A program made the translations under genes and the position numbers. This document shows, piece after piece, positions 54,239 through 62,010 of a stretch of DNA of 64,000 nucleotides. This DNA is from Candidatus Saccharimonadales bacterium (GTDB taxonomy: Bacteria; Patescibacteriota; Saccharimonadia; Saccharimonadales; EFPC-124). The stretch spans positions 220,805 through 284,804 of the forward strand of contig JBOHNX010000002.1 in NCBI GenBank assembly GCA_050730875.1, given 5' to 3'. Positions within the stretch are counted from its first letter, which is position 1. Each line of letters opens with the position of its first letter. A model generated the notes under the pieces. The model ran no database searches, was not told where the DNA came from, and saw nothing but the letters and a program-made list of their open reading frames with translations.

Positions 54239-54871
54239 ATGGACGAAAAATTTCTGACGCTTTGGGAAGATCCAGCCAAAGAAATCGGCGAGCTTATTTT
54301 GGACGAGGCGATCGAGGACGCCGCGCCGCTGGTTGCCAAGATTCCGCTACTATCGTTGGTTGTAGCTACCTGGAAAAGCGGCCGTGCCTGGACCGATTAT
54401 TTGCTTGCTAAAAAAGTGCAGCATTTTTACGAAGCATGGGAAACGCTTGGTACCAAAGAGCGCAAACAAATCTTCGAAAAATTTAAAAAGAAGCCACGCG
54501 CATTTGCCGAAAAATTGCTGTTCATTTTAGACCAGCAGGAAGATTTGGCTAAGTGCCGAATTTTGGGTGAACTAACCGTTGCGTATCTCCAAAATCATTT
54601 AAAACGGGGCGACTACTACGATCTTATCGAAACAGTTAATCGGCTATCGCTTGGAGACTTGCAGAAGTTCACAGCGCTTAACCAGTACGAGAGTTTAGTG
54701 CTGCCGCAACGGGTGGTGAAAGAACGCTACGCCGCGCTGTTTATAAGCCGCGGCTTGCTGATGAGCGCATCACGCATTCCGGGCGAGCAACGCACTAGTA
54801 GGGAGCCAGATTACCACCTGACCACTCTGGGTAAAAAATTGGCCGACATCCTAGGAGAAGGTAATGATTAA
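54239..54871 (+). CDS. Hypothetical helical protein
   Basis: 210-aa ORF. No motif recognised. Confidence 0.45.
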   Translation: MDEKFLTLWEDPAKEIGELILDEAIEDAAPLVAKIPLLSLVVATWKSGRAWTDYLLAKKVQHFYEAWETLGTKERKQIFEKFKKKPRAFAEKLLFILDQQEDLAKCRILGELTVAYLQNHLKRGDYYDLIETVNRLSLGDLQKFTALNQYESLVLPQRVVKERYAALFISRGLLMSASRIPGEQRTSREPDYHLTTLGKKLADILGEGND

Positions 54872-55445
54872 GGCGGTTATTTTGGACTGTTTTGGCGTAC
54901 TCTACATTCCAGTTGGCGAAGATTTTTACCAATCGCACGTGCCAAATTACGAAAAAAAGCGAGACGAACTACGCGACTTGGGCCGGCAAGCCGACTATGG
55001 CTTAATCAGCCAAGAAGATTTGGTGCTGGCCGTGGCGCAGCTGACCGAAATGGATCCTAACGACGTCCGCGACAAACTGGTAGGTGGTTTGGTGCGTAAC
55101 CAAGCACTGCTAGACTTTTCGCAAAGCCTGCGACCCCAGTACAAAATAGGTATGTTGAGCAATATTAGCGCCAGCACAATGGACACATTTTTTACTCAGA
55201 AAGAGCGCGAGCAGTACTTCGATGACGTAGTAATTTCCAGCGAAGTCGGCATGACTAAACCGCATCCAGCAATATTCGAACTAGCCTGCCGACGACTCGG
55301 TGTCGACACCAGCGAAGCAGTAATGATAGACGACAGCTCAGCAAACTGCGCCGGCGCGCTCGAAGCCGGTATGCAAGCAATCGTATACGAATCCTTTGCG
55401 CAGACAACGTCTGCCCTCAAGAAGTTTCTAACAAATTCTAAGTAA
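54864..55445 (+). CDS. HAD-superfamily hydrolase (subfamily IA-like)
   Basis: 193 aa. Motif I ILDCFGVL (second Asp absent, as in dehalogenase-type members). SN, K and IDDS motifs follow. Confidence 0.65.
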   Translation: MIKAVILDCFGVLYIPVGEDFYQSHVPNYEKKRDELRDLGRQADYGLISQEDLVLAVAQLTEMDPNDVRDKLVGGLVRNQALLDFSQSLRPQYKIGMLSNISASTMDTFFTQKEREQYFDDVVISSEVGMTKPHPAIFELACRRLGVDTSEAVMIDDSSANCAGALEAGMQAIVYESFAQTTSALKKFLTNSK

Positions 55446-55505
55446 CCCAGGGTAATTGTAATTTATACAATTCACTTATCATTCCTAATACAAAGGGGGT
55501 CTAAA

Positions 55506-56124
55506 GTGCATATCAAAAATTCAATTTCGGTCTGGGTTAAAGAACATATAAAAATAGTCGGAGGAGTAACGGCTGGCCTAATTGTAGGTGGAGCAAGCAC
55601 GGCTGTAGCATTCGCTGCTATTCCTGACGCGGGTGAGTTATCCCGCTTGCTATAGCACGGGAGCTTTAGGTAAGGTCCATATCATTGATGACGCTGCCCA
55701 AACCTGCATGGCCAATGAGGTAGAACCAAGTCGGCCAGCCTGGCCCAACCGGGCTACAAGGGCCGGCTGGTCCCGCAGGGCCGAATAATCCCTTAAGGCC
55801 CAATGTGGCAGGAGCGGATTTTACTGACGCTCGCATGATCAGTTGGAATTTAAGTAATTTAAATTTTGCGGGGAGTAATTTTACTGGTACATACCTCAGC
55901 GGTTCTATTTTTGATGGGACAAATCAGCTATGTCTCAATCCAAAATAGCAACTGCCAGAATGCGGTTTTGACTTCAATGAACTGGAGCGACACTTCGTAA
56001 TCTAAGCCTGGCAGGTTCAACCTTTGCCGGGGCAACATTCCTGAACGTCACTTGGGACAATGTGAGGTGTCCCGACGGCACAAATAGCAATAACAACGGC
56101 AGTACCTGCGTCGGCCATTTATAA
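55506..56124 (+). pseudogene. Decayed gene for a secreted collagen-like (Gly-X-Y) + pentapeptide-repeat protein (at least 4 frame changes)
   Basis: GGGGG RBS + GTG 55506. Frame 0 gives the TM/signal segment ...GGVTAGLIVGGASTAVAFAAIPDAG. Frame +1 (from 55633) gives VSYPACYSTGALGKVHIIDDAAQTCMANEVEP. Frame +2 (from 55724) gives NQVGQPGPTGLQGPAGPAGP...ADFTDARMISWNLSNLNFAGSNFTGTYLSGSIFDGTN. Frame 0 (from 55944) gives NSNCQNAVLTSMNWSDTS. Frame +1 (from 55981) gives ATLRNLSLAGSTFAGATFLNVTWDNVRCPDGTNSNNNGSTCVGHL*. No ORF of 60 aa or more exists in this 690-bp gap. Confidence 0.65.
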
Positions 56125-56137
56125 ATATGGATAAAGG

Positions 56138-58084
56138 CTAATTCACGGGTGTATAGACTACCGTGAGATCAAGCCAGTCAAGTGAGCTTATGTTAGCAGA
56201 GAATATCTTCACATCGCCATTCGTATTGAGATCCATGTGAGCATTAAACGTCGCTGTTGATGAAGCATTGGTGGCGATTGGGAAGCGCAGTTGGTTTAGT
56301 GGTCGCGCCCAAGTTGGGAGACTGGCGATTATATCGCCGGACGTTGCCGAGTTTATGTCTACGTCTAACTGGAGTTCCACCTGACCAGTAGAGAGTCGTC
56401 TCAGGCGATGCAAAGAGTTTCCAGGAAGGCCGTCGGCTGCCGGAGCCTGTATGGTAAGGTTTGTCCAAGCTATTTCATTTGTGCCAATGCAGTCCTCCCA
56501 AGAGCTGCCCTGGTAACAGCGGAATTTGCCAGAGTTAGAGTTGTAGTACATGCTACCGTTAACGCCTGTTGGATCACCGGCTGTGTTTTTTGTGTCTAGC
56601 ACTAGCAGTGCACCGGTGCTATCGGCAGTCGGGTTACCAACGTAGGATCGGCTATTGGTTGTATCGATAACAAACTGTGGCACGCCAGAGTTATTTAATA
56701 CGCGGAAAGCTGTTGTGCCGTCACTTGCTTGGAAGGTGGCGGCGCCATTACCGTCTAGGACTAACGAGTTAATAAAGCCAGTGGTCATATAAATACCACC
56801 CCAACCTGCTATTTGGAATTGGTTGGTGTCTGTGATGTTTGCTTCGCCTGCGTACACCAGAGAATCCGTTCCGAAGTACAGCCTGCCGCCTGCGCCGTTG
56901 GTGCCAGTACCGGCGATTATCGTCTGACTGTTCGATGTGTCCACCGTCAACAGGGATGTACCTCCTGCATTGAGCACACGAAACGCCGATGTTGAGTTGC
57001 TCGAGTTCTGGAAAAATGCCTGCCCAGTTGTGTTCACTTGCGCCAGTAATGTTGAACCGTTAGCGATTTTAAGCGGCTGATCGGGAAAGATATTTCCAAT
57101 TGCCACGTAGTTGTCATTAATCTTCAGGCCATTGGTACCAACTGATTCAATGCGGAAGTAGTTATTGGTACTATCCCATTGCAGATAGCCATTTTCGCCA
57201 GCGGTGGTGCTATCGCCCAGGATAAGCCGGGGGTTGTTGCCATTGTTATAGATGGCTGCTTCACCATCGATTACTTCGAATTTCGAAAAACCGGCAATAC
57301 CGCCAATGCCAACGCGTCCGTTGGTGGTGTCGACATTAAATACTGAAGAGCCAGCTGCGTTGAGTACCCGCAGAGCAGTCACAGAGTCGGTAGAATTTTG
57401 AAGCGTCAGCGCACCGCCGTTAGTGAGCACCATGACGTCTGAACCATTCTTTTGCAGCTGCAGAATGTTACCGCTAGCGCCCGTCTTATTTAAAAAGAGT
57501 GTACTAAGCGTCGTGCCGTCAGTCTGTACGGCACTGGGGGCAACTTGCACGAATTTACTCCAGTCCAAGCCACCCAATTGCTTGGCGTTGAGCGCATAAG
57601 GTGTTGCGCCGAGTCGTCTAAATGGCGTCATCTCACCGTCCCAGGAAGGCGTGCCGCTCGTGCCACCGACGTTAATAGACAGCCACAGCGTGTCCTGGTT
57701 CCAGTCAACGCTGCTACCAAAAGCGGTCACTGAACCAAGCTGTGCTGAAAAGTAACCGTTAGTAACTGTCACGCGATCAGTGCTGATGCGAGTCTCGGTC
57801 CATTTAAGCGTGCCGCTGCACGGTGGGATGCCGGACGCCTCACAGCCGGTACCGTCCTGGTAGATCTTGAATTCTATATTGTACGTGCCATCTGGCACCA
57901 CGGCGCCGCTGTTGTCGAGCAATCGTGCTTGGTAGTTGAGCCGTTCGTTTATGCCTGTAGCAGCTCTTGCCGGCAGCGAGAAAGTAAGACTGAATGCCGC
58001 AGCTACGAAAGAAAAGGCGAAAATGAAAAGAACACAACGCCAAAGGCGTGCGAACGCAAACGGATAGGTGTTTCCCCAATACAC
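56138..58084 (-). CDS. Large secreted fibre/adhesin-like protein with three internal ~35-aa repeats
   Basis: 648 aa. GTG start. Signal/TM segment VLFIFAFSFVAAAFSLTFSLPARA. N-terminal LNYQARLLDNSGAVVPDGTYNIEFKIYQ. Repeats LQNSTDSVTALRVLNAAGSSVFNVDTTNG / FQNSSNSTSAFRVLNAGGTSLLTVDTSNS / FQASDGTTAFRVLNNSGVPQFVIDTTNS. Gly/Asn/Thr-rich throughout. Confidence 0.6.
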   Translation of the reverse strand: MYWGNTYPFAFARLWRCVLFIFAFSFVAAAFSLTFSLPARAATGINERLNYQARLLDNSGAVVPDGTYNIEFKIYQDGTGCEASGIPPCSGTLKWTETRISTDRVTVTNGYFSAQLGSVTAFGSSVDWNQDTLWLSINVGGTSGTPSWDGEMTPFRRLGATPYALNAKQLGGLDWSKFVQVAPSAVQTDGTTLSTLFLNKTGASGNILQLQKNGSDVMVLTNGGALTLQNSTDSVTALRVLNAAGSSVFNVDTTNGRVGIGGIAGFSKFEVIDGEAAIYNNGNNPRLILGDSTTAGENGYLQWDSTNNYFRIESVGTNGLKINDNYVAIGNIFPDQPLKIANGSTLLAQVNTTGQAFFQNSSNSTSAFRVLNAGGTSLLTVDTSNSQTIIAGTGTNGAGGRLYFGTDSLVYAGEANITDTNQFQIAGWGGIYMTTGFINSLVLDGNGAATFQASDGTTAFRVLNNSGVPQFVIDTTNSRSYVGNPTADSTGALLVLDTKNTAGDPTGVNGSMYYNSNSGKFRCYQGSSWEDCIGTNEIAWTNLTIQAPAADGLPGNSLHRLRRLSTGQVELQLDVDINSATSGDIIASLPTWARPLNQLRFPIATNASSTATFNAHMDLNTNGDVKIFSANISSLDWLDLTVVYTPVN

Positions 58085-58151: not shown

Positions 58152-59078
58152 TTAACTTAGTTTGTCAATATTTGAAGACTTGCGGTGCCTCGAGCGGCCC
58201 GACATGTAGCCCCCAATAAACACTGCGGCAACTAACAGCACTGCAATTGTGAGTGCGGCAGCATCAAAAAATGTTTTGCTGACTTCCTGGCCAAATAAGC
58301 GCACAACAGGGGAGTCAGTCGTACCATGCACAATAACGACGAACTGCAGATATGCTTGTTCGCCGGTGCTGTCTGTAACTTTGATGACCACTGTGTAAAC
58401 GCCTCCGCGGGTGTATGTGTATTCTGCGGGGAATTTATCGGTGTTTTGGCGTTGATAGGTGTTGCTCGAGCCGTCACCCCAATCGACAGTGACCGTGTAT
58501 GGGCCGGTACCGCCCATAAAATGAATAGGAATACGGAATGGCTGGTTTACAAAAACACCTTGCGTTGTGAAGTCATAGGCTATAGTAAGCTGGAAACGGG
58601 CAACTTCTTCTTGCCCTGGCTCGGCTGGTTCTTCACCTTCGGGGAGCTTTGGTTGCTGGGGGACGTAGAAAACCGTAATGGTTGTGGAATCGGGGCTTGG
58701 TTGATTCGCCATGTCGTATTGCCGGGCAATAAGGTCGTTCTTATTTATAAAAAGATCAACCTGTAACTGATATGTGCCGTCCGAGTCACAAACAGTTGAA
58801 CCCACAAAAATATTGTTGCTAAAGATTTTGACAATCAGGCCTGCAATGCAGGTGCCTTTAACGGTAATATTTTTTTGGGTAAAGGTAGCGCCATTGGCGG
58901 GTTCGCCTATAGTTGGCGCAGTCGACGGCGGCGCTGTTGGCACCGTGCCGCCGACGTTAATGTTGCCACTTTCTGTGTTATGAGAAGAGGCAAGGAGCGG
59001 TCCGCTTGAGCCATAAAGAGCAAGCAATAGTAGGCTCAGTCCCATAAAAAATCGTCCTAGGGCTCGACCTGCACGCAT
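58152..59078 (-). CDS. Membrane-anchored surface protein with Ig-like and PKD domains
   Basis: The start is taken at MRAGRALGRFFMGLSLLLLALYG (signal), since the longer ORF extension to 59348 overlaps the divergent gene. PKD signature GPYTVTVDWGDGSS...YTYTRGGVYTVVIKVTDSTGE. C-terminal TM plus basic tail (LTIAVLLVAAVFIGGYMSGRSRHRK). Confidence 0.65.
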   Translation of the reverse strand: MRAGRALGRFFMGLSLLLLALYGSSGPLLASSHNTESGNINVGGTVPTAPPSTAPTIGEPANGATFTQKNITVKGTCIAGLIVKIFSNNIFVGSTVCDSDGTYQLQVDLFINKNDLIARQYDMANQPSPDSTTITVFYVPQQPKLPEGEEPAEPGQEEVARFQLTIAYDFTTQGVFVNQPFRIPIHFMGGTGPYTVTVDWGDGSSNTYQRQNTDKFPAEYTYTRGGVYTVVIKVTDSTGEQAYLQFVVIVHGTTDSPVVRLFGQEVSKTFFDAAALTIAVLLVAAVFIGGYMSGRSRHRKSSNIDKLS

Positions 59079-59117
59079 ATTCAAGATTGTAGCATGAGCC
59101 CGCCCGGATACATTACA

Positions 59118-59855
59118 ATGAAAACTATGTGTGGGAGAGTAGTGCTCAAAATAACATTGCAAGTTGTGGTGCTTAGCCTGTTTTTGCCGGCAACGGCGTT
59201 GGCGATCGACTCTCCTAATTATCGGATTCAGGAAGATTTTATTGGCGGGAGTGGAAGGCCGCAATCTAGTTCGACCAATTACCAATCGCGGGATAGCGCG
59301 GGAGCTAACGCAGTAGGCGATGGGACAGGCACTAATTACCGCAGCCAATCAGGTGCAACGACAGCAGACGAGCCGAGATTAGAATTTGGTATTACCTCAT
59401 CCAGCGTTAATCTCGGATCGCTTTCGGCATCGTTGACGCGAACCGGAACTGCCACATTTAACGTGCTCAACTACACCAGCTATGGTTACATTGTGCAGGT
59501 TATTGGTCAGCCGCCCGATAATGGTGCACACACTTTGACGGGAATGAGCACAGCTGGTTCGTCGACAATCGGCACCGAGCAATTCGGTATTAATTTAGTA
59601 GCCAATACCGCTCCAGAATCTTTTGGTGCAAACCCCGCCCAGGTGCCAGACAGTACGTTTGGTTTTGGTGTTGCGGCATCGGGATACAATACTGCCAACA
59701 CGTATAAATATGTGTCCGGCAATACGATTGCATCGGCGCCAAAAAGTTCGGGCCAAACCGATTATACTATTTCGTATATTGCAAATATCTCGAATGATAC
59801 CCCGGGTGGAAGTTATTCTGGCACGCAAACACTCATATGTGTCGGCACATACTAA
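59118..59855 (+). CDS. Secreted beta-rich surface-subunit-like protein, paralog A (shares a C-terminal ~190-aa module with 59945..60991)
   Basis: Signal MKTMCGRVVLKITLQVVVLSLFLPATALA. Three short NY(R/Q) repeats. Shared blocks LEF..SSVNLGSL, GY.V.V.G, GTEQFGINL, YNTANTYKYVSGNTIAS, YIANISNDTPGGSY. Terminal aromatic residue. The start is uncertain (59094, 59118 or 59127). Confidence 0.55.
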   Translation: MKTMCGRVVLKITLQVVVLSLFLPATALAIDSPNYRIQEDFIGGSGRPQSSSTNYQSRDSAGANAVGDGTGTNYRSQSGATTADEPRLEFGITSSSVNLGSLSASLTRTGTATFNVLNYTSYGYIVQVIGQPPDNGAHTLTGMSTAGSSTIGTEQFGINLVANTAPESFGANPAQVPDSTFGFGVAASGYNTANTYKYVSGNTIASAPKSSGQTDYTISYIANISNDTPGGSYSGTQTLICVGTY

Positions 59856-59944
59856 CTTGTTAACGTAGTTGAGATTTTAAAAAGCTTATGGTAGTTTAGT
59901 ATATTAGGATAGGTAGGTTAGTAGAGGTCCTAAAACACAAAAAA

Positions 59945-60991
59945 ATGAAAAAAATGCGCACAACCAAAAGAATAGTAGTAAGTAGCCTACTAGTTTTGGT
60001 GGCGGCTACGCTACCTTTAGCATCGGCTTCAGCCGCACAATTAACGTCACGTTCGCTGACACTTGGGAGCTCGGCAGTGAGTACCTCAACCACTCACGAT
60101 TTTGACTTCACCATAGCAACGACAGGGAATGTTGGCTCGATTAAATTCGAATATTGTACAGCTGCGTCAGGTGCTTGTACGACGCCAACTGGGCTTACGA
60201 CGACTAGCGCAACGCTAGACGCGCAGTCTGGAACCGGTGCTACTGGCTTTACAATGGTTAACACCACGAACGGTGCACCGTATATTACGCGCGTCGCATC
60301 TAGTATTAGCTCGGGCACGGTGGCCAGCTATACGCTAGGAAGCATTACGAACCCATCGACCACGAACACCACGTTGTATGTCCGTGTGAGCACTTATGCA
60401 AGCACGGACACCACAGGCAGCGCGACAGATACTGGCACCGTGGCCGCAAGCACGGCTAATCAAATTGATGTTTCAGCTACTGTCGATGAAACGTTAACGT
60501 TCTGCACCGGTACATCCGGTATTACGACAACCAGCTGCGCCGGTGCCACTGGTTCATCTGTGAACCTGGGGACGCTGACGCCCTCGACAACAGGTTCTGG
60601 TACATCGCAGCTTGGCATTAGCACCAATGCCAACAGCGGTTACGCTATTACAGTGACTGGCAGTACGCTGACATCAGGCGCCAATACAATCGACGCACTT
60701 GCGACCCAGACCGCTTCAACGCAAGGCTCAGAACAGTTTGGATTTAATCTGCGCGATAACCTGACGCCAAATGTCGGTGTCGAACCGGACGGTGCGGGTA
60801 CGGCAACACCAACCGCGAACTATAACACTGCCGATTCTTACAGATTTGTGTCTGGCGATACGATTGCCAGCAAAGCGTCAGCCGATGACTTTCGTCGCTT
60901 CCATGCTGCCTATATTGCAAACATTGCCGGTAATACACCCGCTGGTACCTACACAACGAGCTTAACGTTTGTTGCTACGGCAACTTTCTAA
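59945..60991 (+). CDS. Secreted beta-rich surface-subunit-like protein, paralog B (extra N-terminal Thr/Ser-rich domain with Cys pairs)
   Basis: Signal MKKMRTTKRIVVSSLLVLVAATLPLASASA. Blocks LTF..GSSVNLGTL, GYAITVTG, GSEQFGFNL, YNTADSYRFVSGDTIAS, YIANIAGNTPAGTY. Ends ...LTFVATATF. Confidence 0.6.
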   Translation: MKKMRTTKRIVVSSLLVLVAATLPLASASAAQLTSRSLTLGSSAVSTSTTHDFDFTIATTGNVGSIKFEYCTAASGACTTPTGLTTTSATLDAQSGTGATGFTMVNTTNGAPYITRVASSISSGTVASYTLGSITNPSTTNTTLYVRVSTYASTDTTGSATDTGTVAASTANQIDVSATVDETLTFCTGTSGITTTSCAGATGSSVNLGTLTPSTTGSGTSQLGISTNANSGYAITVTGSTLTSGANTIDALATQTASTQGSEQFGFNLRDNLTPNVGVEPDGAGTATPTANYNTADSYRFVSGDTIASKASADDFRRFHAAYIANIAGNTPAGTYTTSLTFVATATF

Positions 60992-62010
60992 TGAAGAGTA
61001 TCGCACGACGTGTATCGTTATGGGGGGTTAGTGCGGTAGTAGTGCTAGGTGCGGTACTACCTGTGCTGGCAGTGAGGCAAGCAGCTGCACAGCAGAATGG
61101 GCAAGCGTTTTCGATATCGCCACCGCTTGTAGATCTTAAAGCTGATCCAGGCCAGACAGTTACGGCAAAAGTTAAACTTACGAACGTCTCCGCGGATGAA
61201 CTGTTAATTAAAACGCAGTTTAATGATTTTGGCGCCAAGAACGAGACTGGCGAACCAAACATTATATTCGACGATACACAATCAACTGATTATTCGCTGC
61301 GTCACTGGATAGCTAGCGCTGAACCTTTTAAATTAGCAAGCAAAGAGACAAAAACGTTAGAATTCCCAATTAATGTACCAAAAGACGCCGAACCGGGTGG
61401 GCACTACGCGGTTGTGCGCTTTACGGGCACTGCAGCTGCAGCCGAACAAAATGGCGTTGAGCTTTCGGCCAGCATTGGTTTACTTGTGCTGTTGCAGGTT
61501 TCTGGTGAGATAAAAGAGGAGGCTTCCTTACTAGATTTTTATACCGCCACGCCTAAAGAATTAAATAGGACGGGCTTCTTCGAAACCGCTCCTATATCTT
61601 TTGTGCAACGCGTTCAGAACAGCGGTAACGTACATATAAAGCCTACCGGAACAGTGGAAGTAATAAATATGTTTGGTCAAAAAGTCGCCACACTGCGCGT
61701 TAATGGCGATCCGTCCAATGCAAAAGATCAGCCGCGGAGTGTCCTGCCCGATAGCGTCAGGCGCTTTGACCAAACTTTATCTGACGCATGGATGTTCGGG
61801 CGCTACGAGGCAAAACTTAAGATGACGTATGGCCAAAGCGGCACACCGGTTGAGTCGACGATTACATTTTGGGTAGTTCCACACAAATTAGTAGCGATTG
61901 TGCTTGTTGTTGGTACGGGTCTGTTCTTCCTGCTGCGCACAGGAATCCGCCGCTATAATTCACACGTCGTTAGAAAAGCGCAAAAAGGTACATTTAGTAT
62001 TCGCAAATAG
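60991..62010 (+). CDS. DUF916/DUF3324-like (CscA-like) cell-surface protein with a C-terminal membrane anchor
   Basis: TAATG overlap with the upstream gene. Signal peptide. FSISPPLVDLKADPGQTVTAKVKLTNVS..., PGGHYAVVRF and GLLVLLQVSGE blocks. C-terminal TM LVAIVLVVGTGLFFLL plus a basic tail. The architecture matches the DUF916 proteins of WxL clusters (assigned from memory, not searched). Confidence 0.5.
   Translation: MKSIARRVSLWGVSAVVVLGAVLPVLAVRQAAAQQNGQAFSISPPLVDLKADPGQTVTAKVKLTNVSADELLIKTQFNDFGAKNETGEPNIIFDDTQSTDYSLRHWIASAEPFKLASKETKTLEFPINVPKDAEPGGHYAVVRFTGTAAAAEQNGVELSASIGLLVLLQVSGEIKEEASLLDFYTATPKELNRTGFFETAPISFVQRVQNSGNVHIKPTGTVEVINMFGQKVATLRVNGDPSNAKDQPRSVLPDSVRRFDQTLSDAWMFGRYEAKLKMTYGQSGTPVESTITFWVVPHKLVAIVLVVGTGLFFLLRTGIRRYNSHVVRKAQKGTFSIRK

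Follow-up and report, generated by a model that had tools for sequence, protein, structure and literature searches.

A gene for a predicted exported pentapeptide-repeat protein, broken by four frame changes in a Candidatus Saccharimonadales genome: a probable recent pseudogene

Introduction

Does the widest gap between genes in a densely coding stretch of DNA hold a dead gene, a gene that is read by unusual means, or an error of assembly? The question is raised by a 64,000-nucleotide (nt) stretch of the genome of Candidatus Saccharimonadales bacterium (contig JBOHNX010000002.1, positions 220,805 to 284,804; referred to here as the window), 95% of which is covered by 69 open reading frames (ORFs) of at least 60 amino acids (aa). 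Between a gene for a HAD-family hydrolase (54864-55445, +) and the 3' end of an opposite-strand gene for a 648-aa protein (56138-58084, −) lies a gap of 692 nt (55446-56137) without any ORF of this length, and every other gap in the window is at most 254 nt. By three-frame translation, the gap encloses a gene of 619 nt on the plus strand (55506-56124). An earlier inspection of the letters alone (the sequence-only reading) took this locus for a decayed gene of a secreted, collagen-like and pentapeptide-repeat protein, and named phase variation and local sequencing error as alternatives. We find that the locus contains the pieces of one protein in broken frames, colinear with intact relatives, and that slippery and repeat tracts are absent. 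With a probability of roughly 0.6, we consider it a full-length, recently inactivated and ordinary pseudogene of an uncharacterised, widespread exported family.

Results

One protein distributed over three reading frames

No single uninterrupted start-to-stop ORF spans the gene, the longest at the locus being 51 aa, and one protein of 208 aa can be read only by following the frame order 0, 1, 2, 0, 1 (frames given as the coordinate modulo 3). Frame 0 runs from a GTG at 55506 to the stop codon TAG at 55653-55655, and frame 1 is open up to a TAA at 55786-55788. Frame 2 is open from 55724, just past a TAG at 55721-55723, to the TAG at 55946-55948; frame 0 reopens at about 55863 and closes with a TAA at 55998-56000; and the second frame-1 stretch, open from 55978, ends at the TAA at 56122-56124. 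Because stops interrupt the alternative frames, a minimum of four shifts is needed for read-through. Each is +1, and the positions of the stops in the three frames thus bear out the statement in the sequence-only reading that every change has the same direction.

The frame order was also obtained from homology and from codon usage. A profile hidden Markov model (HMM) of the family was built from 17 intact homologues, with the window sequence excluded, and was searched against the six frames of 55300-56300. It produced five colinear matches in frames 0, 1, 2, 0 and 1, and nothing significant in the minus-strand frames of this region. The same order was returned by a codon-usage likelihood trained on the intact genes of the window and independent of homology, for which the frame call was ambiguous only within the Gly/Pro-rich run. 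The features of the locus, with the HMM matches, are as follows.

55493-55499 (+): Shine-Dalgarno-like AAGGGGG, 6 nt 5' of the GTG start, read from the sequence.
55506-55634 (+): piece 1, frame 0, with the GTG start, a lysine-rich n-region, a hydrophobic segment and A-F-A/A-I-P-D; HMM match 1 at 55518-55634 (+), model positions 5-43, E 1.8e-8.
55632-55636 (+): shift site 1, frame 0 to frame 1, GCGGGTGAG, placed by translation and HMM.
55636-55722 (+): piece 2, frame 1, the two-Cys hairpin module VSYPACYSTGALGKVHIIDDAAQTCMANEV; HMM match 2 at 55636-55719 (+), model positions 45-71, E 8.5e-5.
55720-55729 (+): shift site 2, frame 1 to frame 2, where the frame-2 TAG at 55721-55723 stands directly before AAC CAA (N-Q).
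55724-55924 (+): piece 3, frame 2, with NQV, the Gly-X-Y run, a linker and pentapeptide repeats 1 to 8; HMM match 3 at 55724-55924 (+), model positions 77-139, E 1.1e-12.
55923-55926 (+): shift site 3, frame 2 to frame 0, ACAAATCAGC, placed by register analysis, alignment, HMM and AlphaFold.
55926-55988 (+): piece 4, frame 0, SYVSIQNSNCQNAVLTSMNWS, about four pentapeptide repeats, recognised by HMM, codon usage and a beta-helix predicted with a local distance difference test score (pLDDT) of about 90; HMM match 4 at 55929-55994 (+), model positions 237-258, E 0.015.
55984-55989 (+): shift site 4, frame 0 to frame 1, TGGAGCGACA, placed by alignment and HMM.
55990-56124 (+): piece 5, frame 1, with the last pentapeptide repeats, the cap W-D-N-V-R-CPDGTNSNNNGSTCVGHL and the stop TAA at 56122-56124; HMM match 5 at 55981-56121 (+), model positions 231-277, E 2e-23.

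Three-frame translation, colinear HMM matches and codon usage therefore agree that the locus reads as one protein once four frame changes are allowed, as had been proposed from the letters. The ribosome-binding site (RBS) and GTG start named in that proposal are present at the spacing given above, and the peptides it quoted (CYSTGALGKVHIIDDAAQTC, GQPGPTGLQGPAGPAGP and CPDGTNSNNNGSTC) were all found.

Architecture of the reconstructed protein

The frame-corrected translation matches Pfam Pentapeptide (PF00805) over residues 104-141 (48 bits, E 8.5e-13; cutoff 20.2), the third result, besides the HMM matches and the codon-usage order, that puts the signal far beyond chance. Upstream of this match, the Gly-X-Y run GQP GPT GLQ GPA GPA GP comprises five triplets and a trailing Gly-Pro, and it scores 14 bits with Pfam Collagen (PF01391), whose cutoff is 27.2. 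The pentapeptide half of the original description is thus confirmed and the Gly-X-Y run is real, but the term collagen-like is generous for a run that stays below the Pfam threshold. The N-terminal hydrophobic segment VTAGLIVGGASTAVAFAAI has a Kyte-Doolittle value of 1.87; piece 1 is likely a Sec signal peptide or a membrane anchor, and A-F-A/A-I-P-D is likely a signal-peptidase I cleavage site, with the cut at the slash.

For the reconstructed sequence, AlphaFold predicts an N-terminal helix (residues 7-28), two hairpin strands (48-51 and 58-60), a disordered Gly-X-Y segment, and a beta-helix that extends from residue 100 to the end of the protein at 208 with pLDDT values of 85-96. The PDB matches listed by Foldseek are pentapeptide-repeat solenoid proteins or domains, and together with the AlphaFold prediction they indicate a right-handed quadrilateral beta-helix. 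In the alignment of the reconstruction with its intact homologues (A1), the invariant residues are C49, G56 and C68 in the hairpin piece, and W186, C191-S197, T203, C204, G206 and H207 in the cap. We infer that the intact protein would be exported, contain disulfides and act at the cell surface.

The reconstruction shares tandem A(D/N)LXX-type repeats with the pentapeptide-repeat proteins of PF00805, including MfpA, Qnr, HetL, lumenal Rfr32 and the SV2 luminal domain, and its PDB sequence matches are likewise all pentapeptide proteins. It falls far below the cutoffs of the NCBIfam models for Qnr, MfpA, HetL and PipB (best score 28.6 bits against 260). Unlike the cytoplasmic DNA-mimic pentapeptide proteins, the family represented in the window combines predicted export with a two-Cys hairpin, an optional Gly-X-Y run and a two-Cys cap containing CPDGTNS. 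A Gly-X-Y run between an N-terminal module and a globular C-terminal domain is also found in bacterial collagen-like surface proteins such as Scl1/2 and BclA (PF01391), whereas the run in the window has only five sub-threshold triplets and is absent from family members such as those of loci L001, L016 and L083.

Intact members of the family

By its own terms, the sequence-only reading would have been refuted by a complete lack of intact homologues of the same N-to-C domain order, but these exist in large numbers. A word-indexed search with the corrected protein recovered the 17 intact relatives of alignment A1, all with this order, and their agreement supports the view of the locus as a broken copy of a secreted protein with a Cys-containing stalk, a collagen-like run and pentapeptide repeats. 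An exhaustive phmmer search against 1.84 billion cluster representatives returned 874 proteins at E<=1e-10, mostly of 200-360 aa and with identities of up to 49% over partial matches. Scans of genomes and metagenomes added hundreds of members; the best tblastn segment is 47% identical and full-length matches reach at most 34%. The cap is present in more than 400 GTDB species representatives, from Saccharibacteria, other Patescibacteria, Acidimicrobiia, Actinomycetes, Chloroflexota, Myxococcota and Marine Group II (MGII) archaea, and in over 540 metagenome stretches. Sequence searches of Pfam, NCBIfam and the PDB match the repeat region only, and neither Pfam nor NCBIfam has a model for the cap or the two-Cys hairpin.

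Family members consist of a signal peptide, the two-Cys hairpin, a linker, in some cases a Gly-X-Y run, an array with a varying number of pentapeptide repeats and the C-terminal cap, with the motifs IPDxxGxIHAC..G.LRIIDS..QTC..ETxLSWNQ at the N-terminus and WxNxxCPDGTNSxxNGxTCxGHL at the C-terminus. The pattern [AV]-x-A-[AST] before I/V-P-[DNGST] occurs in 70 of 75 members and reads AFAAIPD in the window copy, which also carries the hairpin motif xAC...G.[LV][RH].ID...QxC and the C-terminal cap, and which keeps all 15 invariant columns of alignment A1. The copy differs from the intact family in needing four frame corrections and in the loss of L-S-W before N-Q: of the linker E-T-x-L-S-W-N-Q it keeps only E-V...N-Q. 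A few intact members, L001 and P0230 among them, are likewise without the W of this linker.

Four intact members, P0190, P0262, P0274 and P0278 (200-216 aa), each align with the reconstruction over the whole length in a single stretch, so that the window copy is essentially full length and not a fragment. A large internal deletion, considered as an explanation for its shortness relative to most homologues, is ruled out by the same alignments. Both end modules were found in 45 of 160 related loci, and in each of the 45 they share one reading frame, so that a general proneness to frameshifts, recoding or phase variation is not a trait of the family. No paralogue of the broken gene was found elsewhere in the 64-kb window. 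No paper that connects Saccharibacteria with pentapeptide-repeat proteins came up in a literature search, nor did anything of use on pseudogenes in Saccharibacteria.

Pentapeptide arrays of this kind also occur within giant proteins of 2000-7700 aa, where the cap-containing unit lies mid-protein in some and at the C-terminus in others. Separately, some family genes adjoin genes for giant proteins of at least 2000 aa that have no annotation.

Size and nature of the four lesions

A +1 shift arises from either a 1-nt insertion or a deletion of 3n+2 nt. The most economical reading of the four lesions is that they are deletions, with deduced sizes of about 2, 11, 2 and 5 nt, rather than 1-nt insertions. 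At site 1, a 2-nt deletion gives the modal family spacing IPD-6-AC, and alignment A3 becomes gapless once the extra residue is restored; the gain with the HMM is a weak +2 bits, and the alternative is an extra G in a GGG run. At site 2, the copy lacks the x-L-S-W that is conserved ahead of N-Q and leaves HMM positions 72-76 unmatched, which fits a deletion of about 11 nt. Putting back xLSW raises the HMM score by about 18-19 bits, a gain that is partly circular. A different junction for this shift, with frame 1 kept through P-A-W-P-N, is possible and was set aside as less parsimonious, because frame 2 provides N-Q and two more Gly-X-Y triplets right after its stop.

The two lesions within the repeat array can be judged from the repeat register. 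Restoring 2 nt at site 3 brings back the hydrophobic residue at the centre as well as the register of 5 residues (+7 to +12 HMM bits), and restoring 5 nt at site 4 returns the register with W-S-G-A-T-L, with a gain of +8 to +16 bits over the 1-nt model. With both sites restored, the protein aligns without gaps to the intact homologues of 200-216 aa. In this register-preserving version, AlphaFold gives the beta-helix pLDDT values of 85-96, and 67 residues reach at least 90; for a version from which single bases were removed, the values are 76-93 and the residues at this level number 27. The chance that the three later shifts match the direction of the first is 1/8, so the common direction needs no special explanation, and it was rejected as a meaningful signal (p = 1/8).

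Genomic neighbourhood

The housekeeping genes upstream of the locus (dUTPase, NUDIX and HAD) are syntenic with those of relatives, and the HAD proteins of the nearest relatives are 66-69% identical. In the two nearest relatives, the HAD gene is followed by unrelated hypothetical genes (L081, 6574-7852; L082, 6567-7085) and then by fpg and holA; in the window, the broken gene and about 6 kb of surface genes take this place. The position just 3' of the HAD gene is thus a variable spot. An Rfam search found only a distant tRNA, and a scan for promoters and terminators gave no plus-strand signal, a result that is uninformative for this phylum.

The block downstream encodes exported proteins, namely the 648-aa protein, a PKD/Ig protein and a three-gene cluster. 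The 648-aa exported protein (56138-58084, −) is without a Pfam domain and without a sequence relative in the PDB. Its N-terminus gives a sub-threshold NCBIfam match to that of Bdellovibrio mosaic adhesive trimer fibres (21 bits against 60, E 2e-4), and homologues of it lie 4-8 kb from intact pentapeptide-family genes in the Saccharibacteria loci L016 and L053. It may be a host-adhesion fibre of an episymbiont.

Three consecutive genes for secreted proteins of 253, 348 and 339 aa occupy 59094-62010 (+), and the 339-aa protein matches the peptidoglycan-binding domain WxLIP_PGBD (PF06030) exactly at threshold. They form a WxL-type cell-surface cluster in a Saccharimonadales genome; such clusters are better known from Firmicutes. 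Locus L001 has a distant counterpart near its family gene. The first ORF of the cluster (59094-59855, +) overlaps the ORF for the 398-aa PKD/Ig protein (58152-59348, −) by 255 nt. The TTG from which the latter is read probably lies too far upstream; translation more likely begins at an internal Met that precedes a signal-like segment (MRAGRALGRFFMGLSLLLLALYG). This neighbourhood and the surroundings of other family members support, without proving, a cell-surface role for the intact pentapeptide protein.

Discussion

A decaying gene or a local error

The locus combines colinear homology to intact genes with disabling lesions, as a pseudogene would. In the history that we propose, the ancestor would have encoded an exported protein of about 210-215 aa. 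It would have started with a Sec signal peptide, likely cleaved at A-F-A/A-I-P-D, and a small beta-hairpin with two cysteines. A very short spacer of Gly-X-Y triplets would have led into a right-handed quadrilateral beta-helix of about 18-19 pentapeptide repeats, closed by a two-cysteine C-terminal cap (CPDGTNS..NG.TC.GHL). Four small deletions, each 2 modulo 3 in length, would then have broken the frame. Translation from the kept RBS and GTG would stop after 49 codons, so that no full-length product would be possible. The first lesion would have lifted selection, and the remaining ones would have accumulated neutrally, as may be expected from the known deletional bias of bacterial pseudogenes. 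That bias is on record for Rickettsia, Mycobacterium leprae and bacteria that became restricted to a host recently. The window copy resembles such pseudogenes in having several small frame-disrupting deletions in one non-essential gene among intact neighbours. It differs from them in showing no substitutional decay or nonsense mutation and in lying in a compact region that is 95% coding.

This difference is the core of what weighs against a decayed gene. The damage consists of indels only, with no in-frame stop inside any piece, and the corrected protein ranks 29th among 70 intact members in HMM bits per residue. Besides the 15 invariant positions, the RBS, the start and the stop are all kept. 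The ratio of indels to substitutions is typically about 0.1 in bacteria, from which we estimate that tens of substitutions and probably one or two stops would be expected alongside four indels. Their apparent absence implies either very recent, indel-biased decay or consensus error. Unless indels arise at a high rate in the lineage, the pattern looks somewhat closer to error than to decay. The nearest family relatives reach only up to 49% identity, and over partial matches.

The competing explanation that has to be taken most seriously is accordingly a local artefact, in which the organism carries an intact gene and assembly or polishing introduced the indels, for which a strain-variable or low-coverage stretch could be the cause. 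The source is a metagenome-assembled genome (MAG), in which the HAD neighbour is 100% identical to NCBI MGH7197007.1 (Candidatus Saccharimonadales), and the spot that adjoins the surface genes is strain-variable; the indel-only damage without substitutional decay points the same way. We nevertheless consider an artefact unlikely, though by no means negligible. About 60 kb of flanking coding sequence is free of frameshifts despite 85 homopolymers of at least 6 nt in the window, and the adjacent surface genes, probably as variable, are intact. The sequence-only reading had rested its case against general assembly error on intact housekeeping genes, and this holds for the window as a whole, which contains no other broken gene; groES, members of the WxL-type cluster and other intact genes account for what first looked like gaps. 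The shift sites are not homopolymers (longest run 3 nt), no DNA-level repeat is able to collapse, and deletions of 2-11 nt fit better than 1-nt miscalls. By our arithmetic, four independent random errors in one 620-nt gene have a probability of about (620/64000)^3, or 1e-6. The lesions are therefore linked, either because the gene was already dead or because of a local assembly problem, and we infer that they are probably real mutations and not consensus errors.

Other ways to read the broken frames

The remaining explanations leave the lesions in the genome and give the sequence another meaning. The gene is of a surface type, stands beside other surface genes and keeps its promoter-proximal RBS and start codon, as would be expected of a contingency locus in which slipped-strand mispairing switches a surface gene off and on. 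In Neisseria opa and Haemophilus lic, such genes are likewise found out of frame with the translation start kept, but they bear a repeat tract, whereas the window copy has four separate lesions and no tract at any shift site. Tandem Repeats Finder reported no arrays at the locus, no simple-sequence repeat was found there, and a check of the shift sites for homopolymers and short repeats returned nothing beyond runs of 3 nt. Since all four independent shifts would have to revert jointly, and both end modules share one frame in each of the 45 other loci, the phase-variable switching offered in the sequence-only reading is very improbable. Programmed recoding, by which four +1 ribosomal frameshifts or RNA editing would yield the full-length protein, could draw on the uniform direction of the shifts and on a corrected protein that appears fully functional. 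The direction carries the chance probability of 1/8 noted above, and none of the 45 homologous loci shares the shifts. In addition, by homology shifts 1 and 4 fall well 5' of the zero-frame stops, the conserved Cys49, for instance, being already in frame 1 ahead of the frame-0 TAG, so that there is no stop-stimulated slippery site of the prfB type. Four serial +1 events in one short gene are not known from any bacterium, and recoding appears to us even less probable than switching. Least credible of all is a chance reading of low-complexity sequence that is no gene remnant. The pentapeptide and Gly-X-Y runs are indeed of low complexity, but the non-repetitive N- and C-terminal modules match the window-free HMM at E 1.8e-8 and 2e-23, the 15 invariant residues are conserved and the minus-strand frames are without a significant match; the HMM search has already refuted this reading.

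If the gene is dead, indel-only lesions of one direction could mark a very recent and possibly adaptive loss of a host-contact factor in episymbiotic Saccharimonadales, or an unusually indel-biased local mutation process in these repair-poor genomes. We regard this as speculative and improbable. Loss of a host-contact factor would fit because the family's capped beta-helix also occurs in Actinomycetota, to which the hosts of the cultivated Saccharibacteria belong, and because the gene lies beside fibre-like and giant surface proteins in other Saccharibacteria.

Significance

Were the indels an artefact, the finding would be merely a quality flag on one locus of a MAG. A pseudogene of a pentapeptide-repeat family is of an already known kind, and mild novelty is limited to the N- and C-terminal modules, for which there is no annotation. 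If the lesions are real, the locus is a single instance in which a highly compact episymbiont genome, 95% coding, has very recently lost a gene; a possible cell-surface or host-interaction factor would then be dispensable in this lineage, and no larger question is opened or settled by it. The more useful by-product is the definition of the family itself, by its signal peptide, Cys hairpin, beta-helix and CPDGTNS cap, a family with no known function that is spread across Patescibacteria, Actinomycetota and Chloroflexota.

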